Assembly: GCA_964016885.1 (NCBI GenBank)
Contig: OZ024764.1
Span: 4,278,001-4,342,000, forward strand
Reading direction: 5' to 3'
Length of the DNA stretch: 64,000 bases
Source: Eledone cirrhosa
Taxonomy: Eukaryota
Below the pieces are notes generated by a model, which made no database searches, had not been told where the DNA came from, and was given only the letters and a program-made list of their open reading frames with translations. Shown here in pieces: positions 7,540 through 63,971 of this stretch. A program made the translations under genes and the position numbers. Numbering within the stretch: position 1 is the stretch's first letter; every line of letters starts with the position of its first letter.

Positions 7540-7830
7540 TGCCAACAGATGAAATCTGTGGTTGGAGTATATCGCTAGGGAGACAGAGAGTGTCTTGGTG
7601 GTGAAATAGTAAAGTAGAAGAGACAATTAAGGCCAAAGAACAGGCTTGGATAGATTGGTGTTACGGGTGTTGCAGCGAGTTTTACCAGAAGGCCAGGAGA
7701 GAAGCTAGGCGACAAGTTTACCTTGCTAGAAGGGAAGTAGAGAAGAAAAAAAATTTAAGTACATTTTTCAGCATGAGGATGAAAGACCTGAGGTATTCAG
7801 GATCGCTAGACAGTGTGTCAGGGAAAATAC
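7540..7830 (+). mobile_element. Degenerate RTE LINE ORF fragment (region between endonuclease and RT)
   Basis: Translates to TDEICGWS...SWW*NSKVEETIKAKEQAW, resembling the RTE 'ETWWWN' segment; contains stops. Confidence 0.6.
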
Positions 7831-7832
7831 TT

Positions 7833-8612
7833 ATTGCGCTGATCCCTCTTATTTCTAATTTCTCCCTTAGTTCGTTTATGCTTTGCCGTTCACGTATATT
7901 ACTATTACACATCCAGTGGAGCATGCAAGCTTCGTTCCTCTCCAGTCTGCGTATATCCCCTGCACACAATGCCCAGGTCTCACTGCCATGTAACATTGCT
8001 GTTCGTATGCAGGCATCATACAGCCTGCCTTTCATTTTTAGAGAGAACCCTTTAGCGGCTAATAGTAGTATAAGCTCTCTGAACTTTTTCCATCCAGTTC
8101 TGACTCTAGCTACTGTACTTTCAGAACACCCTCCACCACTGCTGATTTTGTCACCCAGGTAACGGAAGGTTTCCACTATTTCTATAGAACCATCTGTGCA
8201 ATGGAATGAGTTAGTATTCTGTGGGCACTTGTTGCTACTTATTGCACCAGAGCACCGGCCACATATAAAATCTATATTCTTAGTTAGCTTACCTGTGAGC
8301 CCACTACATCTTTTATGCACCCATACTTTGCATTTGGGACATAAAATGGAGTTTCTGTCTATTCCTTTCCTACACACTAAGCAGGGCCATTTCCCGATTG
8401 GGACCGGTGCCCTATTTTTCTTCCTACAAACTAGAACTTTAGTCTTAGCCAGGTTAATTTTAATGCCTTTTGATTCTAGGCCATGCTTCCATGTTTGGAA
8501 TTTCTTCTCTAGTTCAGCCATTGATTCAGCTATGAGCGTTAGATCATCTGCATATAGGAGTTCCCATGGGCAGCCGGTCTTGAACTCCTCTGTTATAGCC
8601 AGAAGGGCAATA
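7833..8612 (-). mobile_element. RTE LINE fragment (RT C-terminal half, PHD-like Cys motif, C-terminal domain)
   Basis: [13 protein letters not shown]...INLAKTK...[12 protein letters not shown]...FRYLG...LHGSETW. Confidence 0.9.
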
Positions 8613-8657
8613 ATAAATAATATACATACACATACATACATACACATCCATACACAC

Positions 8658-8688
<31 letters not shown>

Positions 8689-8876
8689 CAAACATATATA
8701 TATATATATTTATATATATACATATATATATGTATATATATATATACATATATACATATACATTTATATATATATATATATATATACATCATCATCATCA
8801 TCATCATCATTTTACGGCTGCTTTTCCCTGCTTGCAAGGGTGGGACATATATATATATATATACATATATATATAC

Positions 8877-9052: not shown

Positions 9053-10007
9053 TCATCATCATCATCACCGTTTTACGTCCGTTCTTCCACGCTAGCATGG
9101 GTTAGACGGGTTGTCCTGTTGTGGGCAGTGTCTGGTCGGCTGACCATGCCTTGCTCATACAGGAACTGATCTGGCTTGATTTCTACAGCTGGATGCCCTT
9201 CCTAACACCAACCTCATTTACAGTGAGTGCTGGGTGCTTTTCCGTGGCGCCTACACGTCCACTTTACAGTGTGGGCTGGGTGCTTTTTTGCCGTGGCACC
9301 TCCACGACCACCTTGCGGTGGGGGGGGGGCATATTGTTTATATGCTTCAGCATGTACCCATGGGAGGTCGGGTACCCTGTATTACTGCGTGACGCCAGAA
9401 GTCACGGTCGTGTGTCATTGACTTTGAGAGGTGTAGTTGGGTAAGGTCGGCTTTTATCACCTCATCCCAAGTCATCTTGGGTCTCCCCACTCCGCGGTTT
9501 CCATCAACTTCTAGTGCTCTGCACCTTTTTATGCAACTGTCATCCTTCATACGCATCACATGTCCATACCAGCGTAACCGCCTCTCCTGCACGCAGCATT
9601 TGATTCCTCTTATGCTCAGTCTCTCTCTCAATTCCTTTATGCTTTGTCGTTCACGTATATTACTGTTACACATCCATCGGAGCATGCAGGCTTCGTTTCT
9701 CTCTAATCTACGTAAGTCTTCCACCTTCAGCGCCCAGGTCTCACTACCATGCAACATCGCTGTTCGGATACACGCATCATACAGTCTGCCTTTCATTCTG
9801 AGGGAGAAGCCTTTTGCAGCTAGCAGTGGTAGTAGTTCCCTAAACTTCTTCCATCCCGTTCTTACCCTAGTTATTGTACTTTCTGAGCACCCACCTCCGT
9901 TGCTAATTCGGTCACCTAGGTAGCAGAAGCTGTCTACTGTTTCTACAGGGCCCTCCCAGAGATTGGTGGTACTTGTTTCCTGTGGCTGTTTGCTTGCTGT
10001 TTCAGCA
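9051..10007 (-). mobile_element. 5'-truncated RTE LINE with 3' UTR and (GAT)n tail
   Basis: FCYLGD...LHGSETW...[13 protein letters not shown]...GRPKMTW, then a 3' UTR ending GGACGTAAAACGGTGATGATG. Confidence 0.92.
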
Positions 10008-10068
10008 TATATATATACATATATATATATATACATGTATATATACATATATATACATATATATATAC

Positions 10069-10117
<49 letters not shown>

Positions 10118-10118
10118 C

Positions 10119-10165
<47 letters not shown>

Positions 10166-14299: not shown

Positions 14300-14697
14300 G
14301 GAGGCACATGGCTTAGTGGTTAGAGCATTGGCTTTGCAATCGAAAGGTTGTGAGTTCAATTCTCAGACCGGGTGATGTGTTGTTTCCTTGAGCAAGACAC
14401 TTTATTTCACATTGCTCCAGTTTACTCAGCTGTAGAAATGAGATGATAGGGACAAGGGTCCATATCATTCCACTGCAAAGTGGTCGTGGAGGCGCCACGG
14501 CAAAAAAAGCACCCAGCACTCACTGTAAAGTGAACGTGTAGGCGCGATGGAAAAAAAGCACCCAGCACTCACTGTAAATGAGGTTGGTGTTAGGAAGGGC
14601 ATCCAGCTGTAGAAATCAAGCCAGAATCAGTTCCCGTCCCACCCTTGCAAGCAGGGAAAAGCGGACGTAAAATGATGATGATAATGATAATGATGAT
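14300..14697 (+). mobile_element. tRNA-derived CORE-type SINE with RTE-like 3' tail
   Basis: A box TGGCTTAGTGG; B box GAGTTCAATTC; CORE-like CCTTGAGCAAGACACTT; 3' end CCCGTCCCACCCTTGCAAGCAGGGAAAAGCGGACGTAAAATGATGATG shared with the RTE at ~43372-43424. Confidence 0.9.
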
Positions 14698-16085: not shown

Positions 16086-17655
16086 TTGTGTTAATATCAC
16101 AACAAAAAGCACTCAGTCCACTCTGTAAAGTGGTTGTGTCGGTGTCACAACAAAAAACACCCAGTCCACACTGTAAAGTGGTCATGTAGGTGTCACTACA
16201 AAAAGCACCCAGTCCACACTGTAAAGTGGTCATGTAGGTGTCACAACAAAAAGCACCCAGTCCACACTGTAAAGTGGTCATGTCGGTGTCACTACAAAAA
16301 GCAACCAGTCCACACTGTAAAGTGGTCATGTAGGTGTCACAACAAAAAGTACCCAGTCCACACTGTAAAGTGGTCATGTAGGTGTCACTACAAAAAGCAA
16401 CCAGTCCACACTGTAAAGTGGTCATGTAGGTGTCACAACAAAAAGTACCCAGTCCACACTGTAAAGTGGTCATGTAGGTGTCACAACAAAAAGCAACCAG
16501 TCCACACTGTAAAGTGGTCATGTAGGTGTCACAACAAAAAGTACCCAGTCCACACTGTAAAGTGGTCATGTAGGTGTCACAACAAAAAGTACCCAGTCCA
16601 CACTGTAAAGTGGTCATGTAGGTGTCACTACAAAAAGCAACCAGTCCACACTGTAAAGTGGTCATGTAGGTATCACAACAAAAAGTACCCAGTCCACACT
16701 GTAAAGTGGTCATGTAGGTGTCACAACAAAAAGTACCCAGTCCACACTGTAAAGTGGTCATGTAGGTGTCACAACAAAAAGCAACCAGTCCACACTGTAA
16801 AGTGGTCATGTAGGTGTCACAACAAAAAGTACCCAGTCCACACTGTAAAGTGGTCATGTAGGTGTCACAACAAAAAGCAACCAGTCCACACTGTAAAGTG
16901 GTCATGTAGGTGTCACAACAAAAAGTACCCAGTCCACACTGTAAAGTGGTCATGTAGGTGTCACAACAAAAAGTACCCAGTCCACACTGTAAAGTGGTCA
17001 TGTAGGTGTCACAACAAAAAGCAACCAGTCCACACTGTAAAGTGGTCATGTAGGTGTCACAACAAAAAGTACCCAGTCCACACTGTAAAGTGGTCATGTA
17101 GGTGTCACTACAAAAAGCAACCAGTCTACACTGTAAAGTGGTCATGTAGGTGTCACAACAAAAAGTACCCAGTCCACACTGTAAAGTGGTCATGTAGGTG
17201 TCACAACAAAAAGTACCCAGTCCACACTGTAAAGTGGTCATGTAGGTGTCACAACAAAAAGTACCCAGTTCACACTGTAAAGTGGTCATGCAGGTGTCAC
17301 AACAAAAAGTACCCAGTCCACACTGTAAAGTGGTCATGTAGGTGTCACAACAAAAAGCAACCAGTCCACACTGTAAAGTGGTCATGTAGGTGTCACAACA
17401 AAAAGTACCCAGTCCACACTGTAAAGTGGTCATGTAGGTGTCACTACAAAAAGCAACCAGTCTACACTGTAAAGTGGTCATGTAGGTGTCACAACAAAAA
17501 GTACCCAGTCCACACTGTAAAGTGGTCATGTAGGTGTCACAACAAAAAGTACCCAGTCCACACTGTAAAGTGGTCATGTAGGTGTCACAACAAAAAGTAC
17601 CCAGTTCACACTGTAAAGTGGTCATGCAGGTGACACTACAAAAAGCACCCAGTCT
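16086..17655 (+). repeat. 48-bp tandem satellite (~33 units) derived from the RTE 3' UTR / SINE internal repeat
   Basis: Unit GGTGTCACAACAAAAAGTACCCAGTCCACACTGTAAAGTGGTCATGTA resembles SINE segment GCCACGGCAAAAAAAGCACCCAGCACTCACTGTAAAGTG. Confidence 0.95.
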
Positions 17656-17680
17656 ACGAGTTAATCCCATTCAGATGGGA

Positions 17681-19617
17681 TTAACTCTTTCGCATTTAAA
17701 CCGCCCAGATCCAGTCAGAATTCTCTCACTTGTTTCTGTTCAAACCGGCTGTAACTGGCTGCTTATACTGATGTTAAGGTATTGTTCTCAAAATAAATAA
17801 CATCAAAATCTCATAGATTTGATATTATGTGAGGTAAAGCCTTTACTGTGAAAATACAATAGTATATATAGAGTAATGTAAATGTTGTGTGAGATATTAT
17901 GTGAGGTAAAGCCTTTACTGTGAAAATACAATAGTATATATAGTGTAATGTAAATGTTATGTGAGATATTATGTGAGGTAAAGCCTTTACTGTGAAAATA
18001 CAATAGTATATATAGAGTAATGTAAATGTTATGTGAGGTAAAGCCTTTACTATGAAAATACAATAGTATATATAGAGTAATGTAAATGTGTGTGAGATAT
18101 GTGAGGTAAAGCCTTTACTGTGAAAATACAATAGTATATATAGAGTAATGTAAATGTTATGTGAGATATTATGTGAGGTAAAGCCTTTACTGTGAAAATA
18201 CAATAGTATATATAGAGTAATGTAAATGTTATGTGAGGTAAAGCCTTTACTATGAAAATACAATAGTATATATAGAGTAATGTAAATGTTATGTGAGATA
18301 TTATGTGAGGTAAAGCCTTTACTGTGAAAATATAATAGTATATATAGAGTAATGTAAATGTTATGTGAGATATTATGTGAGGTAAAGCCTTTACTGTGAA
18401 AATACAATAGTATATACAGAGTAATGTAAATGTTATGTGAGGTAAAGCCTTTACTGTGAAAATACAATAGTATATATAGAGTAATGTAAATGTTATGTGA
18501 GATATTATGTGAGGTAAAGCCTTTACTGTGACAATACAATAGTATATAAAGAGTAATGTAAATGTTGTGTGAGATATTATGTGAGGTAAAGCCTTTACTG
18601 TGAAAATACAATAGTATATATAGAGTAATGTAAATGTTATGTGAGATATTATGTGAGGTAAAGCCTTTACTGTGAAAATACAATAGTATATATAGAGTAA
18701 TGTAAATGTTATGTGAGATATTATATGAGGTAAAGCCTTTACTGTGAAAATACAATAGTATATATAGAGTAATGTAAATGTTATGTGAGGTATTATGTGA
18801 GGTAAAGCCTTTACTGTGAAAATACAATAGTATATATAGAGTAATGTAAATGTTATGTGTGATATTATGTGAGGTAAAGCCTTTACTGTGAAAATACAAT
18901 AGTATATATAGAGTAATGTAAATGTTATGTGAGATATTATGTGAGGTAAAGCTTTTACTGTGAAAATACAATAGTATATATAGAGTAATGTAAATGTTAT
19001 GCGAGATATTATGTGAGGTAAAGCCTTTACTGTGACAATACAATAGTATATATAGAGTAATGTAAATGTTATGTGAGATATTATGTGAGGTAAAGCCTTT
19101 ACTGTGAAAATATAATAGTATATATAGAGTAATCATCATCATCATCATCATCACCGTTTTACGTCCGTTCTTCCACGCTAGCATGGGTTAGACGGGTTGT
19201 CCTGTTGTGGGCAGTGTCTGGTCGGCTGATCATGCCTTGCTCATACAGGAACTGATCTGGCTTGATTTCTACAGCTGGATGCCCTTCCTAACACCAACCT
19301 CATTTACAGTGAGTGCTGGGTGCTTTTTCGTGGCGCCTACACGTCCACTTTACAGTGTGGGCTGGGTGCTTTTTTGCCGTGGCACCTCCACGACCACCTT
19401 GCGGTGGGGGGGGGGGCATATTGTTTATATGCTTCAGCATGTACCCATGGGAGGTCGGGTACCCTGTATTACTGCGTGACGCCAGAAGTCACGGTTGTGT
19501 GTCATTGTCTTTGAGAGGTGTAGTTGGGTAAGGTCGGCTTTTATCACCTCATCCCAAGTCATCTTGGGTCTCCCCACTCCGCGGTTTCCATCAACTTCTG
19601 TAAATGCTAAAGTGTTA
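17681..19617 (+). mobile_element. piggyBac-type MITE copy with internal 72-bp satellite (17820-19133), interrupted by an RTE
   Basis: Starts TTAACTCTTTCGCATT; unique ~140-bp left arm homologous to 28599-28735; degenerate right end AATGCTAAAGTGTTA after the RTE. Confidence 0.75.
19133..19599 (-). mobile_element. 5'-truncated RTE LINE 3' end, near-identical to 9051-9510
   Basis: (GAT)n tail, 3' UTR and GRPKMTW coding end; only a handful of substitutions versus the 9051 copy. Confidence 0.92.
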
Positions 19618-20256
19618 GGATTCAGAACTAATGTAAATGCTAAAGTGTTAGGATTCAGAACCTCACATATTCACCTCTCCTATATTTCTGTTTTACATGG
19701 TTGTGTAGGTAGTTTTAATAATTCTAGAAAGCTACCCTTAATGGTAACAAGGGAATAATATATCTTCCAAGCCAGAAACATTTGTCAACACCTCCTGACA
19801 TTAGCGTAATTGCTATAAAACATGACAGGAACCCATGAACTTCGTTTGCTTTCTTAGGTAAACATTGCAAATAAATATTTAGCTTTTGTTGTCATGTAAT
19901 AAGATTTTATCTCACCTCACCATTACCTCTGTAACAATATGGTGGTGGTGGTGGGGTGGAGGCGTGGGGTGGGGTGGGGTGGGGGTGGTTGTTTGTTTGG
20001 AAGTAGTGGTTGTGGTGATGATGATGGGGGGGGGTATGAGGGTGATGGTGGTGGTTGTTTGTTTGGTAGTAGTGGTGTTGGTGGGAGTGGGGGGGTGTTG
20101 TAAGCAATGGTGGTGGGGGTGGGGGTGATGGAGGTGTGGTTGGGGTGGCTGTTTGTTTGTTTGGAAGTAGTGGTTGTGGTGTGTGTGGGGGGTAGTAGAG
20201 CTTGGAATGATGGGATTGTGGGGGTGGTGGGGTGTATATATTGTGTGTGTATATAT

Positions 20257-28159: not shown

Positions 28160-28495
28160 GAGCTTCAATGTATCCATGCTCAGGGAAGCAAGGTGTTCAG
28201 AGTATGGTAGATGCCTGATGGAGGGTATTCGCTTGGTTGCACGTCTCTAGTTTCCAGGAGGTCAATGTTCTGAGCAAGATAGAGGTTCCAGACTGGTGAT
28301 GCAAATTCTAAGTGTGGCCGCACCATAGCTATATACAGCCTTAAATAGATAGCTGGAGAGTGGCTGACAAAGGTCTTGCTGAGTGATGCTAAGACACCCT
28401 CGGCCTTCTTGACAATTTTAGAGATGTGCTTTGTCCAACCTAAATCGTTGCTGACAGTAATGCCCAGGTCACGTTCACAAAAGGACTTCTTGATA
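28160..28495 (-). mobile_element. CR1-group LINE RT C-terminal fragment
   Basis: ERDLGITVSNDLGWTKHISKIVKKAEGVL...LYIAMVRPHLEFASPVWN. Confidence 0.85.
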
Positions 28496-28734
28496 TTAGA
28501 ATTAAAATAATTTGAAAGAAAGGGTTTATAAAGAATATGGTCAAAGAGTACATAATTTGTCATCAAAGGAGGGGAAAGGGCTTGATAATGAGGGTTAACC
28601 CTTTAATGTTCAAACCGGCCAAAACCGGCTAGAATTCTCTACCTCTTTCTATTGAAACTGGCTGTAACTGATCGCTCAAACTGATGTTAAGGTATTGTTC
28701 TCAAAAAAAATACTTTCAAAATCTCAAATGATTC

Positions 28735-29802
28735 GATATTATGTGAGGTAAAGGCTTTACTGTGAAAATACAATAGTATATATAGAGTAATGTAAATGTT
28801 ATGTGAGATATTATGTGAGGTAAAGGCTTTACTGTGAAAATACAATAGTATATATAGAGTAATGTAAATGTTATGTGAGATATTATGTGAGGTAAAGCAT
28901 TTACCGTGAAAATATAATAGTATATAGAGAGTAATGTAAATGTTATGTGAGATATTATGTGAGGTAAAGCCTTTACTGTGACAATACAATAGTATATATA
29001 GAGTAATGTAGATGTTATGTGAGATATTATGTGAGGTAAAGTCTTTACTGTGAAAATACAATAGTATATATATAGAGTAATGTAAATGTTATGTGAGGTA
29101 TTATGTGAGGTAAAGACTTTACTGTGACAATACAATAGTATATATAGAGTAATGTAAATGTTATGTGAGATATTATGTGAGGTAAAGTCTTTACTGTGAA
29201 AATACAATAGTATATATATAGAGTAATGTAAATGTTATGTGAGGTATTATGTGAGGTAAAGACTTTACTGTGACAATACAATAGTATATATAGAGTAATG
29301 TAAATGTTATGTGAGATATTATGTGAGGTAAAGTCTTTACTGTGAAAATACAATAGTATATATATAGAGTAATGTAAATGTTATGTGAGATATTATGTGA
29401 GGTAAAGCCTTTACTGTGAAAATACGATAGTATATATAGAGTAATGTAAATGTTATGTGAGATATTATGTGAGGTAAAGCCTTTACTGTGAAAATACAAT
29501 AGTATATATAGAGTAATGTAAATGTTAAGTGAGATATTATGTGAGGTAAAGCCTTTACTGTGAAAATACAATAGTATATATAGAGTAATGTAAATGTTAT
29601 GTGAGATATTATGTGAGGTAAAGCCTTTACTGTGAAAATACGATAGTATATATAGAGTAATGTAAATGTTATGTGAGATATTATGTGAGGTAAAGCCTTT
29701 ACTGTGAAAATACAATAGTATATATAGAGTAATGTAAATGTTATGTGAGATATTATGTGAGGTAAAGCCTTTACTGTGACAATACAATAGTATATATAGA
29801 GT
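28735..29802. repeat. 72-bp satellite, left of Tx1
   Basis: Unit TGTGAGGTAAAGCCTTTACTGTGAAAATACAATAGTATATATAGAGTAATGTAAATGTTATGTGAGATATTA. Confidence 0.95.
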
Positions 29803-30039
29803 GGTTTCTTTATTTGCCACTAGGGCACAAAAGGTAGGGACAGATACAAGGGGGGAAGTTTACATATAATTAACGAGTACAAAAATATAACAATGAAATA
29901 ACAACAACAAACGAAGTCCTCAATAGGGAGGGGGCATTAACATGGGTCGCACACACCCCGGAAAAAATGTGTAACCCTTCTCCTCAGGAGCACAAAGAGT
30001 AGGTGCTTCCCTCGTCTCCTCTTTTTCCTCTTCTTTTAC

Positions 30040-33000
30040 CTACAGGCTGATATAGAGAGAAGACCCATTCACTCTGGCCATTCTCCCTACTTTCACCCAC
30101 CTTTCATAAAACTTGCTGGGGTAGAGCACCTCTCTCTCCATTCTGATCCTTCTTTTAAAATGGTATTTGAAAAAGGGGACCAGTTGTTGGCCGGAGAGAA
30201 AGGTGTCTGACCTCAGCCCTTTCAGCCTCGTCCACCATACAACTTCTTTAGCCATGGCTACCACACAGAGAAAAACCGCCTCTCCTTCGTTTTTGAAAGG
30301 GGGAGGCGGTTTGATCGTGACAATGGACTCGGTGGTCAACCGGATTGGTCCCACCCTCGACAGTAGTCGTTCCACATAGCCCCACAGGTCAGCAATGCCT
30401 GGGCAGTGTACGAATGCGTGCGCAACGGTTTCGTCATCATGCACGCATCTCGGACAGATCTTATTCAAAGGATCTCTACCCAGGCTCCCATGCCTGTGGA
30501 GCTTGTCTCGAACGGGTAGAGCCCCTCGGTAGCACTGCCAAGCCAGGGACTTTTGGAAGTTGTCCATCGGTCCAGGGCCAAACGTCCTACCAAACAGACT
30601 GGCCAGTTCATCTTCCTCCATGCCTAGAGCTTCTCCGAGAGCATCGTCGCACCTGCTGCGTACCAACCCTCTATAGAATGTCGACGTGGAGTCTCCACTG
30701 ATTGCCGGGTCCGCTTTCCAGAGGACCGTGAGCGCCTGGGCACATTCAATGTGCCAGTCGCCCACTTTTCTCGGTCTTTGCTTGACCCATGATTGCAGCT
30801 CGGTGAGCGAGACGAGTCTGGGAAAGGCTCGCCTCACAAACGGGGCCCACACCGGTTGACCGGTGAGGAATACCTGGAGGTGCCGTAGCCTTAATGCGTG
30901 TTTACGCATCTGTAGCCACGGCATCCCCAGCCCTCCTTTCGAAGGGTGTTGACAGCAGATGGATCTCCTCACCAAAGGGGTCCGCTTGTTCCAAAGAAAT
31001 TGGAACAGCGCGCACTCCATTTTGGCGAGTCTTTTCACTGGGCAAGGCACGACGGTCAAGCGGTAGTAGATGACGGATGCTATATAAGTATTCGCCACCT
31101 CCGCTCGACCTTTCAGGGATAGTTTGCACTGGGCCCACTTCTGGGTGAGTGCAAACACCCTGGCCGTTACCTCGTTCCAGTTTTTCTCCACCTGGAGGTC
31201 TGGTCCGAACCAGACCCCAAGCAGCTTCACCGGGCCCTCCGTCCAGCGTCCGACGACGTCGTTGGAGGGCATCGGTTTGCCTCTCCATGTTCCGAGTTGC
31301 AAACCGACGGACTTGTCCCGGTTCAGCTTGGCTCCTGTAAACCTTTCATATTCCTCCAGTAAGGTGCCGATCTCACCGATTTGCGAGGTTTTCGACACCA
31401 TTACTGTCACGTCATCGGCGTAGGCCGACGCCGCTTTCTGCAATCCCGGTTCCAAAGGGATGCCCTGCAACCGCTCCAACTTCCGCAGTAGTGGCTCAAG
31501 AGCCAGCACATACAGTAGGGAGGAGAGAGGGCATCCCTGTCGGATGGATCGCATGATTTGGAACGGCTCCGAGAGGTGGCCGTTCACCTTGGCCCTTGAG
31601 CAGACGTTGCTGCTGTGCATCGCAGCAATCCAACCCCTGAAAACGGGTCCGAAGCCTGCCGCCGCGAGCACCGCATCCAGGTAACGATGGTCAACCCTAT
31701 CGAAAGCTTTAGATTGATCCAAGTTGATCAGGGCCCCACCAAAGCCGGGTTCATTCCCTACCCTCTCTATGATGTATCGCATAAGGTGGAGATTGTCGTG
31801 AATGGACCTGGACGGGATTGCGCATGTCTGCGCTTCTCCCACCAGGTTTCCAACGACAAGCGCCAACCTCTTCGCTAACACCTTGGCCAAAATCTTTAAC
31901 TCTGTATTTAGCAGAGTTATGGGCCTAAAGTTACTTATGTCATCCCCCTTGTTCTCATCCTTCCTCACCAGCGTAACTACGCTCTTGGTCACAGAACTGG
32001 GAATTCTCCCGTTCTGCTGCCAGTTGCAGTAGACCGCTTCGAGGATATCGGAGAACAAGTCCGGCATCGCTACATATAGCTCGTATGGTAGACCATCGAG
32101 ACCCGGGGATTTGCGTTTGCCGCATTGGCTCAGCGCCGCCCCTATCTCAGCAGCTGAAATCGTCCTTTCGCAGGACTTCGCCTCCGCGTCCGAGAAGCGC
32201 GGCAGACCGTCGAGGTATGGATTGAAATCCATAGTCTCACCCGGCGCGCCGCCCCTCTCGAACAGTCGTGCAAAGTGCCGCTGAAAGGCCGCACACATCT
32301 GCCCAGGTTCAAGGATCACACGCCCATCCTGGTCCTTCAAAGACCGAATCGTGGACTTGTTCCCACTTTTTGCCTCTGTCACTCGGGCCCAGCTCACAGC
32401 TTTGGCTCCCTCATTACCCAGAGCACGTATTTTACTCCTGACAACGCAGCCTTCATGCTTCACCTCAAAGAACTGGTCTAAGGCCATTCTTGATGCCAGC
32501 ACGCCGGCTACATTGCCACTCCTAATCGCCTCTTCTACTCTATCTACTAATTCCCTTTCCGTCTTGTTCCTATCCCTTGCTAATTCCTGACTAAAACCTA
32601 TCGATTCTATTCTAATTGCTCTCTTAAGAGAGCTCCACCACCTGTTGTTGACAATTGCCCCTGTCAAACTCTGCTTAACTAACGTGCTAATCCGTTTACT
32701 GTAAGCTTTGCTTCTCGGTAAGGACAAGTTCAGCTTCCAGTAACCGGGTCCCTGTCTATGGGTTCTATCAAGGTTGGCTATGCAGGTCACTAACTTGTGA
32801 TCCGAATAGTCAACCATGAACATTTTTGGACAGCTAAATGTGTCCCTATCGTTCTCTCTAACTAGGACCCTATCTAGGTACGACCTAGATGTTCCACTGC
32901 GATTGGTCCACGTCCATAGTGGTACAGTCGGAAAATCTAGTCGATATCTATCGGCCAGGTCAAATCGGCCGATTAACCTTTTGAGGCTTTTACACCCCCC

Positions 33001-33477
33001 TCTATTGGCACATGCCCCTACATAGTCCCAACGTGCATCCAGGATACCATTCCAGTCCCCCACTAAAAGCAAGGAGCGGGACGTTCCCAGAAAAGTTTCC
33101 AGACGTTGGAAGTATTCCGGCCGCGCTGCCCAAAAAGGGGCGTACACAGCTATTAGTCTAAGGGCTCCACTTTCACTACTGCCGACGTCTAAAACCACCA
33201 GTCGACCCTCCGGGTCCAGGTGCACCTTCTGTATGGCGAGGCCCAGGTGTTTTCGCAGCAGAACGACAACTCCACCCCCACCCCCCGGTTGACAGAGAGA
33301 TGCGAAGATCTCAAAGTCGTCGAAGAGGGGCGCCAGTTGGTGCTCGCTGCTGATCCTGGACTCGCAAATAGCCATTACATCCATTCTATGCGACCTGAGA
33401 TCGTTTAAAAGTTTGCCTTGTTTCCAAGACAGTCCCAGGCCACGTACATTCAGACACCCAACTCTTATATCAGCCAT
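30040..33477 (-). CDS. Tx1 ORF2: APE endonuclease, reverse transcriptase and C-terminal Cys/His zinc motif (1145 aa, intact)
   Basis: EN motifs CLNVRGL, GDWN, DRVL, SDH; RT motifs SPGLDGLP, FRPITLLN, DQSKAFDRVDH, RQGCPLS, YADD; CPRC-x8-H-x4-C. Confidence 0.97.
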   Translation of the reverse strand: MADIRVGCLNVRGLGLSWKQGKLLNDLRSHRMDVMAICESRISSEHQLAPLFDDFEIFASLCQPGGGGGVVVLLRKHLGLAIQKVHLDPEGRLVVLDVGSSESGALRLIAVYAPFWAARPEYFQRLETFLGTSRSLLLVGDWNGILDARWDYVGACANRGGCKSLKRLIGRFDLADRYRLDFPTVPLWTWTNRSGTSRSYLDRVLVRENDRDTFSCPKMFMVDYSDHKLVTCIANLDRTHRQGPGYWKLNLSLPRSKAYSKRISTLVKQSLTGAIVNNRWWSSLKRAIRIESIGFSQELARDRNKTERELVDRVEEAIRSGNVAGVLASRMALDQFFEVKHEGCVVRSKIRALGNEGAKAVSWARVTEAKSGNKSTIRSLKDQDGRVILEPGQMCAAFQRHFARLFERGGAPGETMDFNPYLDGLPRFSDAEAKSCERTISAAEIGAALSQCGKRKSPGLDGLPYELYVAMPDLFSDILEAVYCNWQQNGRIPSSVTKSVVTLVRKDENKGDDISNFRPITLLNTELKILAKVLAKRLALVVGNLVGEAQTCAIPSRSIHDNLHLMRYIIERVGNEPGFGGALINLDQSKAFDRVDHRYLDAVLAAAGFGPVFRGWIAAMHSSNVCSRAKVNGHLSEPFQIMRSIRQGCPLSSLLYVLALEPLLRKLERLQGIPLEPGLQKAASAYADDVTVMVSKTSQIGEIGTLLEEYERFTGAKLNRDKSVGLQLGTWRGKPMPSNDVVGRWTEGPVKLLGVWFGPDLQVEKNWNEVTARVFALTQKWAQCKLSLKGRAEVANTYIASVIYYRLTVVPCPVKRLAKMECALFQFLWNKRTPLVRRSICCQHPSKGGLGMPWLQMRKHALRLRHLQVFLTGQPVWAPFVRRAFPRLVSLTELQSWVKQRPRKVGDWHIECAQALTVLWKADPAISGDSTSTFYRGLVRSRCDDALGEALGMEEDELASLFGRTFGPGPMDNFQKSLAWQCYRGALPVRDKLHRHGSLGRDPLNKICPRCVHDDETVAHAFVHCPGIADLWGYVERLLSRVGPIRLTTESIVTIKPPPPFKNEGEAVFLCVVAMAKEVVWWTRLKGLRSDTFLSGQQLVPFFKYHFKRRIRMEREVLYPSKFYERWVKVGRMARVNGSSLYISL

Positions 33478-33498
33478 GTTGGTTAAAAGAGGAAGGAC

Positions 33499-35235
33499 CT
33501 ACCTGTTCGGCTCCTGAGGAGCAGGTTGCACAATATCCATGGGCGTATTGGAGGGGTTGTTTGGTGGGGTGTTGTTCTGTGGTGGAGTGGGGGTGTTTGG
33601 TGAGGTGTGGGTGGGGAAACGTTTCAAGAGGACGCGGTTATAGGGTCGAGTACATGTTTTCCCCACGTCCTCAGGAAAGTTCTCTCTTAGTTTTGCATAG
33701 GTGTCCATTGGGAGTCTTATCATTTTTAAATGCGGTTTGTTGGCCGCGCTTGCAAAGAATTGCCCTTCAGTTTCCACCAAAGGGTCTTTGTGTATTGTTT
33801 TTACTAGTTCTTTGTTATTTGTGTTAATGTATGTATACTGTTTTATTTGTGTTGTGTTTGTTTGTTGTTCTTGTGTGTGCTTACGTTTTGTTGTATGTGT
33901 TATGTTTTGGGGTGGGGCGGATTTTGTTTGTTCTGTTTGTTTTGTTTTTGTTGGTGGTTGTGTGTTTGTTTCGTTTATGTTCGAGTGGTGCTTTCTTTTT
34001 TTCCTTTTTACAGGTTGGAAGGGTTCCCCCTCTTCGTCACTAGGTGCCGTTTCCGCTGGGTCCTCGTCCGTGCTGTCGGGTAGTGGTGTATTTTGGGGTT
34101 TTGTTGTATTTGTGTGTGTTTTGGGAGTTGTTTTGGGTGGGGCCGTGTCTTGTGTTATTTTTCCCTGTTGTTTTTGTTGTTGTTGTGGTGGTGGTGGTGG
34201 AGGTGGTGGTGGTGGTGGCGGTGGTGGTGTGTGGGGTGTAGGCAAAAGAGCCTTTTTTTTTGTCAATTGAGGACAAGCAGCCCTTAGATGACCCCTGCTT
34301 GAACAGTAGTAACATATGGGCCTCCTACCCTCGGCTGAAATATATATAAATGTTTCTCCATCGAGGGACACCCTCTGTGGTATTCTAGCTATTCGTTCTG
34401 GTCTCATTTGGACCAGAACCTCCACGCTCAAACCGCCGAAAACGTCTGTGGTGACTTCTCCTACTGAGAGGATTCCGTCCTCGTCTTCTAAAAATCCTGT
34501 TAGTACCCAGGAAATGCATGCATTTGGCCGGATTCCGGAGACCCTTATCTTCTGCGTTCTTTTCCCTAAATATGTGGGGAAAAATGTATGTAGCTTGGAA
34601 ACAATTGGTGCCACAGAGTATTTCCTGGCCGTCAATTGATCCTTCATTAGGACCGTTATATTCCCATAGAGTGGCCCTATTTGTATGAACGATATATCAC
34701 TCCACACATTTTTTAGGACCAGCTCAATCTCTTTTTGGGATAATTGAGTTGGTTTCCTTGTTATGTTGGAAATTGTTCTGAAAGATATCGTTCTTAGCGT
34801 CGTGTCTCTTTTGATTTCTTGTGGGGAGGTGATTGTGAAGTCTCCTCCTTCTTTGAAAGTTACATACTGTTTCGCTTCCTTCATCTTTTCTCTCAGAGTT
34901 GTAATGTCCAGTTGCTTGCAGGTTTGTGTTTTCCGGACCGCCTGTGCAAAGGAGGTACCAGTAGTGGGTTCGCTTTGTTTGGTGTTATCGTTATTTTTTC
35001 CTTGGTTGGTGTTGTGACTATTGCTGTTATTGTCGTTGTTGTTTTTGTCTGCGTTTATGTGACTTTCTGGGTTTTCACCCATTTTTACAAATTTTTCTTT
35101 TAATTCCGTGTTCCATGTTTCTTTTGCAGAAGTCAGGAGGGAAGACTTAGAGCCTTGTGCTTCTAGCTTCTCTGTATCACCTTTCTTAGGGGGCGTGGCT
35201 TTCACGTTAGGATGAGATGTGAAAATTCCGTCCAT
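33499..35235 (-). CDS. Tx1 ORF1: gag-like nucleic-acid-binding protein with one CCHC zinc knuckle (578 aa from first ATG)
   Basis: CYYCSSRGHLRAAC (CX2CX4HX4C); poly-Pro/Gln linker; basic KRKKRK; first ATG at 35235; lies directly upstream of ORF2. Confidence 0.9.
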   Translation of the reverse strand: MDGIFTSHPNVKATPPKKGDTEKLEAQGSKSSLLTSAKETWNTELKEKFVKMGENPESHINADKNNNDNNSNSHNTNQGKNNDNTKQSEPTTGTSFAQAVRKTQTCKQLDITTLREKMKEAKQYVTFKEGGDFTITSPQEIKRDTTLRTISFRTISNITRKPTQLSQKEIELVLKNVWSDISFIQIGPLYGNITVLMKDQLTARKYSVAPIVSKLHTFFPTYLGKRTQKIRVSGIRPNACISWVLTGFLEDEDGILSVGEVTTDVFGGLSVEVLVQMRPERIARIPQRVSLDGETFIYISAEGRRPICYYCSSRGHLRAACPQLTKKKALLPTPHTPPPPPPPPPPPPPPQQQQKQQGKITQDTAPPKTTPKTHTNTTKPQNTPLPDSTDEDPAETAPSDEEGEPFQPVKRKKRKHHSNINETNTQPPTKTKQTEQTKSAPPQNITHTTKRKHTQEQQTNTTQIKQYTYINTNNKELVKTIHKDPLVETEGQFFASAANKPHLKMIRLPMDTYAKLRENFPEDVGKTCTRPYNRVLLKRFPTHTSPNTPTPPQNNTPPNNPSNTPMDIVQPAPQEPNR

Positions 35236-35446
35236 TTCTATTAGTTTGCCGTAATAAATTTTTAACTGGAAAATTCGCCCCAAAAAGGGGCGAAAATAAA
35301 TAAACTCAAAGTTTGACGACCAAGGCAAGGGGTTAACGTATATTACAGTATAAAAAAATTAATCAAAACTCACTTTTTGAGTAAGTAAATCCGACTCGGT
35401 AGCCGAGCTTGTTCACACACGTCAACACACGTCTCTCGTATACGAG

Positions 35447-35865
35447 ATGTTATGTGAGATATTATGTGAGGTAAAGACTTTACAGTGAAAATACAATAGT
35501 ATATATAGAGTAATGTAAATGTTATGTGAGATATTATGTGAGGTAAAGCCTTTACTGTGAAAATATAATAGTATATATAGAGTAATGTAAATGTTATGTG
35601 AGATATTATGTGAGGTAAAGCCTTTACTGTGATAATACAATAGTATATATAGAGTAATGTAAATGTTATGTGAGATATTATGTGAGGTAAAGCATTTACT
35701 GTGAAAATACAATAGTATATGTAGAGTAATGTAAATGTTATGTGAGGTATTATGTGAGGTAAAACCTTTACTGTGACAATACAATAGTATATATAGAGTA
35801 ATGTAAATGTTATGTGAGGTAAAGCCTTTACTGTGAAAATACAATAGTATATATAGAGTAATGTG
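35447..35865. repeat. 72-bp satellite, right of Tx1
   Basis: Same unit resumes at ATGTTATGTGAGAT. Confidence 0.95.
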
Positions 35866-35914
35866 AATGCTAAAGGGTTAACAGAAGTATAAGTCTTTGG
35901 ATCACTACTGCTTT

Positions 35915-36920
35915 TGGTGGCTCTCTCAGACATGGTCTCTGTAGTACATACAACATCCCTCACTAGCTATGCTGATGACACAAAGGTAACACTGCCCTGT
36001 TACAAGATATGGATGTCATATACAAATGGGCTGAGGACAACAACATGCAGCTTAATGCTGGAAAATTTCAAACCCTACAATACCAACCTGCAAACACAAA
36101 TACAATACAACACAGCTACACCGGACCAGGAAGGATCGAAATTCCCGTGTCACAATCGATAGGAGACCTGGGAATAGACATGAGCGACGATGCATCTTTT
36201 TCTTCCCACATCATGTGGGTGGCGACAATGTGCAGACGACTTGCTGGCTGGATCTTGAGGACTTTCCGGACAAGAGACTGAGACACCATGTGGACACTAT
36301 GGAGGACATTTGTCCTAAGCCGCCTGGACTATTGCTCCCAGTTGTGGTCACCCCATAGTGTCAAACTAACCACGGAGCTTGAGGCAATCCAACAAAGCTA
36401 CACCAAGAGGATTGCGATGATAAAGGAGATAAGCTACTGGGAGAGGTTAAAAGAACTGAAACTCTCCTCCTTGGAACTAAGACGGGAGAGATACGCAGTT
36501 ATCTACATATAGACGATCCTGGAGGGACTAGCACCAAACTTTGGCATTGGGAGCTGGACCAACCCCCGAACAGGACGTCACTGTGTGGTGCCAAAGGTCC
36601 TGTCTTTCACATCTAGAGTAAGGAGCAGGTATTGCAATAGCCTGGGGTTCAAGGGCCCTCAACTCTTTACCAAGCTGCCAAGGGATCTGAGAGATCCACA
36701 TGGTTTGGACGTGGATGTTTTCAAGAAACATCTCGACACCCTGCTATCCAGGATCCCAGATGAGACCACAGCACGGTACGAAGGTAACCTAAGGGCAGCA
36801 ACAACAACAAACTCCCTCTTACACCAATGGCCAGCCAACAAAGGCTGGAGATAGAATGTGTAGCAACAAGGGCGGTGCCCCAGCATGGCCTCAGCTGAAT
36901 GGCTAGAACAGGTAAAAGAG
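35915..36920 (+). mobile_element. 5'-truncated degenerate CR1-group LINE with 3' UTR
   Basis: SYADDTK...MQLNAGKFQ...DLGIDMSDD...SRLDYCSQLWSP...YWERLKELKL..LELRRER; stops and frameshifts. Confidence 0.88.
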
Positions 36921-45106: not shown

Positions 45107-45377
45107 GATTTCTTTATTAGCCACAAGGGCGCAACAAGAAAAGGGGACAATACAAAGACATGCCGGGGATTTTACAACAATCGAAATCCCCAATAGGTTG
45201 GTAGATAGATATATTTCTTTATTAGCCACAGGGGCACAAAAGAAGGGGACAAATACAAAGGGGGAAGTTTACATACAATAAAAACGTGTAAAATGGTTGG
45301 TAGATAGATAGGTAGATATATAGGTAGGTAGGTAGGTAGATAGATAGATATGTTTCTTTTTATTTGCCACCAGGGCA
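45107..45377 (-). mobile_element. Three stacked 5'-truncated Tx1 3' ends (~45107-45193, ~45212-45294, ~45351-45377) in a GATA/GGTA microsatellite
   Basis: Each begins (plus strand) TTTCTTT(TT)ATT(A/T)GCCAC-NN-GGGC, like 29805-29826; TSD (TA)GGTTGGTAGATAGATA at 45089-45106, 45194-45211 and 45295-45310. Confidence 0.85.
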
Positions 45378-45648
45378 TATACATTATATACTTTATATAC
45401 TTTATATACTTTATATACATTATATACTTTATATACATTATATACTTTATATACATTATATAGATTATATACTTTATATACATTATATACATTATATACT
45501 TTATATACTTTATATACATTATATACTTTATATACATTATATACTTTATATACATTATATACATTATATACTTTATATACTTTATATACATTATATACAT
45601 TATATACATTATATACTTTATATACTTTATATACTTTATATACATTAT
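45378..45648. repeat. 9-bp minisatellite TATAC(A/T)TTA
   Basis: Direct reading. Confidence 0.92.
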
Positions 45649-53539: not shown

Positions 53540-54950
53540 AAGCTGGGTGCATTTTGTCGTGACACCTACATGACCACTTTACAGTGTGGACTGGGTGAAT
53601 TTTGTCGTGACACCTACATGACCACTTTACAGTGTGGACTGGGTACTTTTTGTCGTGACACCTACACAACCACTTTACAGTGTGGGCTGGATGCTTTTTG
53701 TTGTGACACCTACACAACCACTTTACAGTGTGAACTGGGTACTTTTTGTTGTGACACCTACATGACCACTTTACAGTGTGGACTGGGTACTTTTTGTTGT
53801 GACACCTACATGACCACTTTACAGTGTGGGCTGGATGCTTTTTGTTGTGACACCTACACAACCACTTTACAGTGTGAACTGGGTACTTTTTGTTGTGACA
53901 CCTACATGACCACTTTACAGTGTGGACTGGGTACTTTTTGTCGTGACACCTACATGACCACTTTACAGTGTGGACTGGGTACTTTTTGTTGTGACACCTA
54001 CATGACCACTTTACAGTGTGGGCTGGATGCTTTTTGTTGTGACACCTACACAACCACTTTACAGTGTGAACTGGGTACTTTTTGTTGTGACACCTACATG
54101 ACCACTTTACAGTGTGGACTGGGTACTTTTTGTCGTGACACCTACATGACCACTTTACAGTGTGGGCTGGATGCTTTTTGTTGTGACACCTACACAACCA
54201 CTTTACAGTGTGAACTGGGTACTTTTTGTTGTGACACCTACATGACCACTTTACAGTGTGGACTGGGTACTTTTTGTTGTGACACCTACATGACCACTTT
54301 ACAGTGTGGACTGGGTACTTTTTGTTGTGACACCTACATGACCACTTTACAGTGTGGACTGGGTACTTTTTGTCGTGACACCTACATGACCACTTTACAG
54401 TGTGGGCTGGATGCTTTTTGTTGTGACACCTACACAACCACTTTACAGTGTGAACTGGGTACTTTTTGTTGTGACACCTACATGACCACTTTACAGTGTG
54501 GACTGGGTACTTTTTGTTGTGACACCTACATGACCACTTTACAGTGTGGACTGGGTACTTTTTGTTGTGACACCTACATGACCACTTTACAGTGTGGACT
54601 GGGTACTTTTTGTTGTGACACCTACATGACCACTTTACAGTGTGGACTGGGTACTTTTTGTTGTGACACCTACATGACCACTTTACAGTGTGGACTGGGT
54701 GCATTTTGTCGTGACACCTACATGACCACTTTACAGTGTGGACTGAGTACTTTTTGTTGTGACACCTACATGACTACTTTACAGTGTGGACTGGGTGTTG
54801 TTTGTTGTGACACCTACATGACCACTTTACAGTGTGGACTGGGTACTTTTGTTGTGACACCTACATGACCATCTTTCAGTGTGAACTGGAAGCTTTTTGT
54901 CGTGACACCACACAACCACTGAACTGTGTGGACTGGTCACTGTTTACCAT
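53540..54950 (-). repeat. 48-bp satellite (~29 units), same family as 16086 in opposite orientation, continuous with an RTE-like 3' UTR
   Basis: Reverse complement of the 16086 unit; preceded by CAGCTGGATGCC 3' UTR motif at ~53500. Confidence 0.93.
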
Positions 54951-57949: not shown

Positions 57950-58727
57950 TTAACCCTTTACCATTTACATTACTCTATATATACTATTGTATTGTCACAG
58001 TAAAGGCTTTACCTCACATATCTCCCATAACATTTACATTACTCTATATATACTATTGTATTTTCACAGTAAAGGCTTTACCTCACATAATATCTCACAT
58101 ACCATTTACATTACTCTATATATACTATTGTATTTTCACAGTAAAGGCTTTATCTCACATAATATCTCAAATAACATTTACATTACTCTATATATACTAT
58201 TATATTTTCATGGTAAAGGCTTTACCTCACATAATACCTCACATAACATTTACATTACTCTATATATACTATTGTATTTTCACAGTAAAGGCTTTACCTC
58301 ACATAATATCTCACATAACATTTACATTACTCTATATATACTATTGTATTGTCACAGTAAAGGCTTTATCTCACATAATATCTCACATAACATTTACATT
58401 ACTCTATATATACTATTATATTTTCATGGTAAAGGCTTTACCTCACATAATACCTCACATAACATTTACATTACTCTATATATACTATTGTATTTTCACA
58501 GTAAAGGCTTTACCTCACATAATATCTCACATAACATTTACATTACTCTATATATACTATTGTATTTTCACAGTCAAGGCTTTACCTCACATAATACCTC
58601 ACATACCATTTACATTACTCTATATATACTATTGTATTTTCACAGTAAAGCCTTTACCTTGCATAATATTGAATATATGAGATTTTGATGTTATTTATTT
58701 TAAGAACAATACATTAACATAAGTATA
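57950..58727 (-). mobile_element. Truncated piggyBac-type MITE with 72-bp satellite, opposite orientation
   Basis: TTAACCCTTTACCATTTAC end, ~10 satellite units, then part of the unique arm. Confidence 0.8.
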
Positions 58728-58737
58728 GATAAAATAT

Positions 58738-59619
58738 ATAGTCATAGTGTTGTTTTGTACTAAATGTTTATAGTATCTTTACCTGGGGACAGATTGTTGT
58801 AAAAATTTACAGTTATACAGTAAAGACTAATATTTAATGTGATGTAGTCATAGTGTTGTTTTGTACTAAATGTTTATAGTATCTTTACTGGTAGACAGAC
58901 TGTTGTGAAAATTTACAGTATTAGAGTAAAGACTTTAATATTTAATGTGATGTAGTCATAGTGTTGTTTTGTACTAAATGTTTATAGTATCTTTACTGGT
59001 GGACAGATTGTTGTGAACATTTACAGTATTACAGTAAAGACTTTAGTATTTAATGTGATGTAGTCATAGTGTTGTTTTGTACTAAATGTTTATAGTATCT
59101 TTACTGATAGACAGACTGTTGTGAAAATTTACAGTATTAGAGTAAAGACTTTAATATTTAATGTGATGTAGTCATAGTGTTGTTTTGTACTAAATGTTTA
59201 TAGTATCTTTACTGGTGGACAGATGGTTGTGAACATTTACAGTATTACAGTAAATACTTTAGTATTTAATGTGATGTAGTCATAGTGTTGTTTTGTACTA
59301 AATGTTTATAGTATCTTTACTGGTGGACAGACTGTTGTGAACATTTACAGTATTACAGTAAATACTTTAGTATTTAATGTGATGTAGTCATAGTGTTGTT
59401 TTGTACTAAATGTTTATAGTATCTTTACTGGTGGACAGACTGTTGTGAATATTTACAGTATTACAGTAAAGACTTTAATATTTAATGTGATGTAGTCATA
59501 GTGTTGTTTTGTACTAAATGTTTATAGTATCTTTACTGGTGGACAGATTGTTGTGAATATTTACAGTATTACAGTAAAGACTTTAATATTTAATGTGATG
59601 TAGTCATAGTGTTGTTTTG
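58738..59619. repeat. 108-bp tandem satellite (~8 units)
   Basis: GTCATAGTGTTGTTTTG recurs at 58741, 58847, 58955 and onward. Confidence 0.93.
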
Positions 59620-59692
59620 AAGTATCTTGCTAATGTGGTTTCATGTGGAACAGGATGTTAAGAGTTAGAGTTAGTAAGGGGAGAAAACTCAC

Positions 59693-63629: not shown

Positions 63630-63971
63630 GGAGGCACATAGCTTAGTGGTTAGAGCATTGGTCTTGCAATCGAAAGGTTGTGAGTTCAATTCTCAGACCG
63701 GGTGATGTGTTGTTTCCTTGAGCAAGGCACTTTATTTCACATTGCTCCAGTTTACTCAGCTGTAGAAATGAGATGATAGGGACTGGGGTCCCTATCATTC
63801 CACTGTAAAGTGGTCGTGGGGGTGCCACAGCAAAAAAGCACCCAGCACTCACTGTAAATGAGGTTGGTGTTAGGAAGGGCATCCAGCTGTAGAAATCAAG
63901 CCAGAATCAGTTCCCATCTCACCCTTGCAAGCAGGGAGAAGCGAACGTAAAATGATGATGATGATGATGAT
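63630..63971 (+). mobile_element. CORE-type SINE, preceded by an inverted partial copy (63541-63630)
   Basis: A/B boxes, CORE-like segment and RTE-like tail. Confidence 0.9.

Follow-up and report, generated by a model that had tools for sequence, protein, structure and literature searches.

What sequence does a Tx1-type retrotransposon recognize when it inserts into an octopod genome? We were led to this question by a 64,000-nucleotide (nt) stretch of Eledone cirrhosa DNA (contig OZ024764.1 of assembly GCA_964016885.1, positions 4,278,001 to 4,342,000 of the forward strand; hereafter the window, in whose numbering all positions are given). On its minus strand lies a 5,644-bp long interspersed nuclear element (LINE) with two open reading frames (ORFs), which interrupts a miniature inverted-repeat transposable element (MITE), and related pieces elsewhere in the window lie at (TCTA)n tracts. 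On balance we consider it probable that this is an intact and likely young LINE of the Tx1 type, that its lineage likely targets (TAGA)n, and that the present copy entered a piggyBac-like MITE at a near match to that target.

A sequence-only reading had described the element as intact, potentially active and full-length, with every other element around it decayed or truncated (coordinates are collected in Table 1). Its claim that both ORFs are uninterrupted and carry endonuclease, reverse transcriptase (RT) and zinc motifs was borne out by the open frames, by Pfam matches and by the catalytic residues. An in-frame stop precedes the ATG of each ORF, and ORF1 and ORF2 are the only complex stop-free frames above 360 codons in the window, the next of the four frames that passed the filter reaching 356 and 206 codons. 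Among eight other window ORFs scanned, three gave partial RVT_1 matches. The inter-ORF spacer has exactly the length reported, 21 nt, and the 3′ end, GGCAAATAAAGAAA, is without poly(A) as stated; AATAAA lies only 4 nt from the end of the element, and an extra CC follows before the host repeat resumes. 'Full-length' holds in so far as ORF1 is complete and preceded by a 211-nt 5′ untranslated region (UTR), but one copy cannot prove a 5′ end, and a palindrome occupies it. This 12-nt palindrome at the 5′ junction could be an integration snap-back product or a genuine 5′ end. A head of structured RNA or small nuclear RNA (snRNA) in the 5′ UTR was considered and rejected: at the gathering threshold Rfam had no match there, and a weak tRNA-like match at 63639-63696 was the only one in the whole window. 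Self-comparison found no second copy of the element's own family in the window.

Table 1. Features of the retrotransposon, its host MITE and its relatives in the window.
Feature	Position	Strand	Remarks
Host piggyBac-like MITE	28599-35877		TTAA at 28595-28598 and 35878-35881; imperfect terminal inverted repeat; internal 72-bp tandem array
Tx1-type non-LTR (long terminal repeat) retrotransposon	29803-35446	-	7-nt target deletion, no target-site duplication
5′ UTR, 211 nt	35236-35446	-	first 12 nt (35435-35446) a perfect palindrome
ORF1, 578 amino acids	33499-35235	-	low-complexity N-terminus, two RRMs, one CCHC knuckle, Pro/Thr/Gln-rich tail
Inter-ORF spacer, 21 nt	33478-33498	-	
ORF2, 1145 amino acids	30040-33477	-	APE endonuclease, RT, C-terminal CX2CX8HX4C
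3′ UTR, 237 nt	29803-30039	-	terminates AATAAAGAAA (29814-29805) plus two extra nt; no poly(A)
f1, 85-nt 3′ end of a related family, 66% to main copy	45109-45193	-	ends AATAAAGAAA + TC; 18-bp flanking duplication of (TCTA)n-type sequence
f2, 81-nt 3′ end of a related family, 80% to main copy	45214-45294	-	ends AATAAAGAAA + TA; 16-bp duplication 45295-45310 / 45196-45211
f3, 26-nt 3′ end of a related family, 85% to main copy	45353-45378	-	ends AATAAAAAGAAA + CA, then (TATC)n
126-bp satellite from a 5′-truncated Tx1-relative piece	1-2417	-	ORF2 C-terminus, about 80% identical

Both ORFs being open and the catalytic residues present, the copy is likely young and coding-competent. The 5,169 coding sites without stop or frameshift set a 95% upper bound of 0.5-1.6% on divergence since insertion, on the assumption that 3.5-4.1% of substitutions create stops and that the indel ratio lies between 0 and 0.1. 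At the Octopus bimaculoides rate of 0.0036 per million years, taken as quoted in the part of PMC13282606 available to us, the bound equals 1.5-4.6 million years. The element deviates at 57 of 310 conserved columns and its two nearest relatives at 41 of 256 and 28 of 195, so that its deviations look like lineage differences rather than decay.

The order of domains in ORF2, an N-terminal APE endonuclease, the RT and a C-terminal cysteine motif, comes without RNase H or a restriction-like endonuclease. Pfam recognized Exo_endo_phos (E 2e-12), RVT_1 (E 2e-27) and zf-RVT (E 2e-6). The endonuclease residues N10, E39, Y112, D141, N143, D202 and H227 are in place, as are the RT motifs D587 and YADD (686-689) and the CX2CX8HX4C motif at 1008-1025. 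Among solved structures ORF2 scored 180 bits to human L1 ORF2p, along residues 4-857 (endonuclease and RT), and 85 bits to R2; the RTE/CR1-type fragments of the window scored 14-29 bits with the family profile. Judged against these references, the RT is nearer L1 than the other LINE groups.

For closer comparison we drew on 45 loci found in a scan of bacterial genome contigs, apparently eukaryotic contamination. In phmmer searches at equal database size, ORF2 scored 398 bits to an element inserted at a U1 snRNA gene (L037) and 299 and 243 bits to two elements inserted in 5S rRNA genes (L042 and L041, the ORF of the latter being partial), against the 180 bits for human L1. These proxy elements themselves score 238-321 bits to human L1 and do not separate into L1 and Tx1 groups, and the 321 bits of L042 mean that the low L1 score of the main element may simply reflect fast evolution. 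The closest relatives of ORF2 are an NCBI protein (70% identity overall) and, as the best named match, a protein of Argonauta hians (67% over the RT region). With the element they form one clade (support 0.998-1.0), a placement that points to an octopod host; the sister of this clade is a group of ORF2s of 1,145-1,160 amino acids at about 40% identity. We built two RT trees, one from 133 of 158 proteins (25 fell below 90% coverage and were dropped) and one from 46 chosen proteins and eight locus ORFs. In each of them the octopod group and the clade sister to it are resolved; neither included a curated Tx1 or L1 reference, and the deep L1/Tx1 split is weakly supported. Tx1 identity, as the sequence-only reading had it, is thus supported by the architecture of ORF1 and by the higher scores of ORF2 to the U1- and 5S-inserted elements, human L1 scoring lower, but the trees leave the deepest node weak, and this counts against the interpretation as a whole.

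ORF1 contains two RRMs (at about residues 149-301) and a CCHC knuckle (307-323) and had no match to Pfam Transposase_22. Its zf-CCHC match (E 0.007) fell below the curated cut-off; in an alignment of the query with 12 homologous segments from the retrieved loci (16-24% identity), however, zf-CCHC was matched in 13 of 13 members. A profile of ORF1 matched the tandem RRM1-2 of IGF2BP3 (E 1.6e-4) as well as retroviral knuckles. We set aside a single-sequence fold (pLDDT 40) and used an AlphaFold model built from the 13 sequences (mean pLDDT 70). The top 40 among the Foldseek matches listed for this model were all RRM proteins (best E 3.4e-5), with TM-scores of only 0.2-0.4 because the domain orientation differs. 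A feature search of the Atlas returned CCHC-type eukaryotic clusters and ZCCHC3 RNA-binding domains at 0.90-0.92, which we treat as a lead only. A word-index search with residues 90-330 had no match, and an exhaustive search with a limit of E 0.001 gave 121 proteins, of which several matched through zinc knuckles alone. On the modelled fold and the profile matches, ORF1 is of Type I (RRM-RRM-CCHC) rather than of the Transposase_22 type. In the portion of PMC5203782 available, RRM/zf-CCHC ORF1s of non-mammalian animals are associated with the Tx1 clade. Type I is not exclusive to Tx1, as plant L1s share it.

Evidence for a target comes from relatives of the element, of which the sequence-only reading had made no use. 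Self-comparison of the window revealed other Tx1-related sequence, including three 5′-truncated copies (f1, f2 and f3) that stand head to tail, stacked in one (TCTA)n tract (45109-45378). The 3′ ends of all three read AATAAA(AA)GAAA, then two variable nt, then TATCTATCTA. An identical 16 bp recurs at 45310-45295, 45211-45196 and 45106-45091, which gives duplications of 16 bp around f2 and 18 bp around f1. Despite identical flanking duplications, the bodies of f1 and f2 are 74% alike; f2 is closer to the main copy (80%), which argues for serial insertion by different families and not for local duplication. The fourth relative lies in the 126-bp satellite at the start of the window (19 units, one of 236 bp retaining part of the 3′ UTR), and its 5′ truncation point adjoins a degenerate (TCTA)n tract; the array is a satellite that arose from a truncated LINE insertion plus flanking (TCTA)n. 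All four window tracts with at least three perfect TAGA-type units sit at these two loci. Four of four relatives therefore lie at (TCTA)n, and the main copy at a near-match site only. There, the two extra nt are followed by TCTAT in the register shared with the relatives; TCTAT occurs at 0.19% of window positions, but this test was chosen post hoc. In the same register the site, ACTCTATATA, agrees with TATCTATCTA at 7 of 10 positions, a measure that is not significant because 6.4% of window positions match TATCTATCTA at 7/10 or better. The sequence specificity that the earlier reading had expected of a Tx1-clade endonuclease thus receives direct evidence from relatives (66-85% at the 3′ end), but this points to (TCTA)n/(TAGA)n and not to the MITE.

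The MITE itself has a TTAA duplication and no coding capacity, and it occurs three times in the 64 kb. Its terminal inverted repeats of 14 bp are imperfect (11/14 match) and begin CCCTTTA; we take the TTAA/CCC signature to identify it as piggyBac-like. The element splits its 72-bp array into two parts at 28735-29802 and 35447-35869, whose 15 full-length units differ on average by 2.0% from their majority unit. The array has an identical unique left flank at three places in the window, with the MITE terminal repeat at its end in at least two. It is thus the interior of the MITE, so that a single insertion event suffices. Of the triple nesting proposed before (MITE, satellite, Tx1), the Tx1 within the MITE stands, but we reject three successive events, since the 72-bp 'satellite' belongs inside one MITE family. 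Compared with its neighbours, the interrupted repeat unit lacks 7 nt, and the site shows no target-site duplication; target truncation of this kind has been described for non-LTR elements (PMC4494074, as far as that source was available).

Several observations concern the surroundings of the MITE copies. The second copy (17660-19660) is split by an RTE-like element with an (ATC)n tail, after which comes a 33-bp duplication containing the right end of the MITE. The third, at about 57.95-58.7 kb (57950-59620), is inverted, and a 108-bp tandem array (58739-59619) stands in place of its left part or breaks into it. Decayed RT fragments flank the host copy at 28180-28563 (minus strand) and 35900-36800 (plus strand); we label them CR1-like from motif inspection, Pfam being without a match for the left one. 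They differ and face away from the MITE, which therefore does not split a single LINE.

A number of points weigh against (TAGA)n as the target. The evidence comes from two loci and from relatives, not from the main copy's own family; the main copy lies outside a (TCTA)n tract and lacks a target-site duplication; and at its site the 7/10 agreement is not significant and the register test was post hoc. Three other short TCTA tracts (10-11 nt) in the window are without Tx1 sequence. The hairpin loop of the endonuclease (T189-S199) has nine residues, as in the promiscuous human L1, whereas it has 11 in Xenopus Tx1L (PMC1950540, in the part available) and in the sister clade. No (TCTA)3 or (TAGA)3 occurs in any of the 45 loci, and the sister clade, known from one assembly, forms head-to-tail arrays instead. 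Moreover, targets differ even inside one Tx1 group according to the accessible text of PMC4494074.

Of the other explanations, the one that survives best is a family with weak or no specificity that favours TA-rich or microsatellite DNA, the TCTAT register being chance. It would account for a main copy that is outside (TCTA)n and has no target-site duplication, for a loop of L1 length and for the frequency of 7/10 matches, and the window is dense in (TA)n. Yet all four relatives are found at (TCTA)n, which is rare, and not one of them in (TA)n or (ATC)n, although tracts of these kinds are very abundant; three of the four are stacked within 270 bp with exact duplications; we consider this explanation unlikely, though it deserves to be kept in mind. 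Less probable still, in our estimate, is that the family targets the 72-bp array of the MITE, as Tx1L targets Tx1D, and that the (TCTA)n insertions belong to other families. The sole copy of the main family seen does lie in the MITE, which at three copies in 64 kb would be a usable target, and in the available part of PMC4494074 the precedent of Tx1L and Tx1D is joined by Tx1 families that target Mariner, Harbinger and satellite sequences. However, the three MITE copies have roughly 48 array units between them and a single such insertion, which shows a deletion in place of a clean target-site duplication. Furthermore, the unrelated (ATC)n-tailed element in the second MITE copy sits within 2-3 nt of the unit position struck by Tx1, a hint that the position following the (TA)n run is accessible to elements in general. 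That (TCTA)n is an RTE-like tail made by the element, or f1 and f2 a local tandem duplication, without any targeting, is very improbable: (TCTA)n does directly follow three 3′ ends and TRF gives a 105-bp period with 1.9 copies over f1/f2, but no tail of this kind follows the main copy, an identical 16-bp stretch, in which AACC is not part of the repeat, borders f2 and f1 on either side, f2 is closer to the main copy than to f1, and the tract at the satellite is on the 5′ side of the truncated piece.

If (TAGA)n is the target, insertion can be pictured by adding to the observed anatomy, motifs and junctions what is known of L1 and Tx1, from a bicistronic RNA through to the second nick. One RNA would carry ORF1 and ORF2; the ORF1 protein, with its two RRMs and knuckle, would serve as an RNA chaperone and package the element RNA, and ORF2 would be made by re-initiation past the 21-nt spacer. 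The APE endonuclease would then nick the TAGA strand, and the RT would copy the RNA from the resulting 3′-OH (target-primed reverse transcription). Where the insertion is on target, the duplications of f1 and f2 would come from a second nick at a distance of 16-18 nt, and as each insertion would rebuild the target, later copies could stack in one tract; at the main copy the second-strand step would have removed 7 nt instead of duplicating them. As a hypothesis, we add a read-through step. Because AATAAA is so close to the element end (4 nt), the transcript would be cleaved within the repeat beyond it, and the read-through (UCUA)n could pair with the nicked TAGA primer, so that copying would begin before the A-tail; this would account for the missing poly(A). 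PMC4494074 notes that transcription of an element together with target sequence can reinforce targeted integration. Copies of the sister clade are likewise without poly(A) and end in AATAAA plus a few nt, which makes the lack of poly(A) old.

The sister clade was seen in 38 overlapping loci (L001-L036, L039 and L045) spread over 16 contigs. These belong to a single assembly, which is labelled an Arenicella metagenome-assembled genome, and look like eukaryotic contamination. Here, intact full-length elements of several subfamilies form long head-to-tail arrays with a period of about 6.4-6.8 kb, all long ORFs being on one strand and adjacent ORF2s 99.6-99.97% identical (two pairs measured). Between the copies there was no spacer, RNA gene (five array loci scanned) or telomeric repeat. 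The arrays resemble telomeric or self-targeting arrays, but a link to telomeres was rejected, as neither (TTAGGG)3 nor (TTAGG)3 occurs in the 45 loci. The inter-ORF spacer is 14 nt in three of four sister-clade loci checked and 8 nt in L037. The element in this last locus is of Tx1 type but distant (27% identity). At its 3′ end it runs into a U1 snRNA gene, at about nt 37, and another U1 gene, this one complete, lies just upstream of its ORF1 (L037:3036-3199 and 9961-10137); from these junctions it is likely a U1-targeting family. The 5S-inserted elements (L041:2726-2844 and L042:4422-4534) are poly(A)-tailed contaminants of bacterial bins, which we presume to be Mutsu-like.

Some further features of the window stand apart from these elements. 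A decayed RT fragment at 7718-8749 (minus strand) has a PHD-finger match (Pfam PHD, E 1.6e-5) just after the RT core, an unusual position. Two 48-bp arrays in opposite orientation (16097-17654 and 53543-54936) contain long stop-free repetitive frames, and their unit resembles a LINE 3′ region that recurs in other parts of the window (e.g. 14471-14578). The tRNA-like Rfam match near the end of the window (plus strand, 31.8 bits) is possibly the head of a short interspersed nuclear element.

A wider picture can be put forward, tentatively and as one that could well prove wrong. Octopods may carry a currently mobile Tx1 lineage that is specific for (TAGA)n/(GATA)n, lacks poly(A) through pairing of read-through RNA, stacks in tracts, breaks them up and turns them into satellites; the intact copy would offer the lineage's first clonable endonuclease and RT, and the sister clade would have abandoned host targets for pure head-to-tail arrays. 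If so, the pair of octopod lineage and sister clade would let target switching of Tx1 endonucleases be tested, Tx1 fragments beside GATA microsatellite markers would be explained, and one route to new satellites in cephalopod genomes would be at hand. A (TAGA)n specificity would also lengthen the short list of targets known for LINEs that are specific for microsatellites; the mechanism by which such LINEs are targeted is called poorly understood in PMC3812793. The practical and comparative value of the locus lies in a complete, clonable element whose lineage target is legible from neighbouring fragments.

An intact Tx1 copy is in itself ordinary in an octopus. In O. vulgaris, Table 1 of PMC13282606 lists 421 recently active L1-Tx1 insertions of 13 families (2,288,644 bp, mean about 5.4 kb, against 5.6 kb here), hundreds of recent near-full-length copies in all, and the supplement gives 80 L1-Tx1 families in total. 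Octopus L1-Tx1, a RepeatMasker class, resembles the main element in having two ORFs, an RRM/CCHC ORF1 and an APE endonuclease, RT and zinc motif; the portions of that paper and supplement available give no structures or targets of the O. vulgaris families. For LINE expression in octopus brain, the accessible text of PMC9115989 reports RTE and Dong and leaves Tx1 unmentioned. Human LINE-1 belongs to the same superfamily and is alignable over endonuclease and RT, but the Eledone element differs from it in its RRM-RRM-CCHC ORF1 without a Transposase_22 match, its lack of poly(A) and its short UTRs, and its ORF2 scores much lower to human LINE-1 than to target-specific Tx1-type elements.

Known Tx1 targets include 5S and snRNA genes (PMC4494074, available part). 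Simple repeats, namely (TC)n, (TTC)n, (TTCC)n and (TTTC)n, are the targets of Kibi and Koshi of fish and of crocodilian Tx1 families; (TCTA)n/(TAGA)n is absent from these lists in the parts of PMC4494074 and PMC3812793 available, Kibi and Koshi being compared by description only. In the literature covered we found no Tx1 element that targets (TAGA)n/(GATA)n, though one may be recorded in Repbase Reports or where PMC4494074 sets out targets in its figure and supplements, all of which lay outside that coverage. Xenopus Tx1L offers a parallel in position, since this Tx1 LINE likewise lies within a piggyBac element that is non-autonomous, Tx1D (PMC4494074 and PMC1950540). Tx1L, however, is strictly specific and has an 11-residue loop, whereas the Eledone element is represented by one insertion with a 7-nt deletion and has a loop of nine residues.

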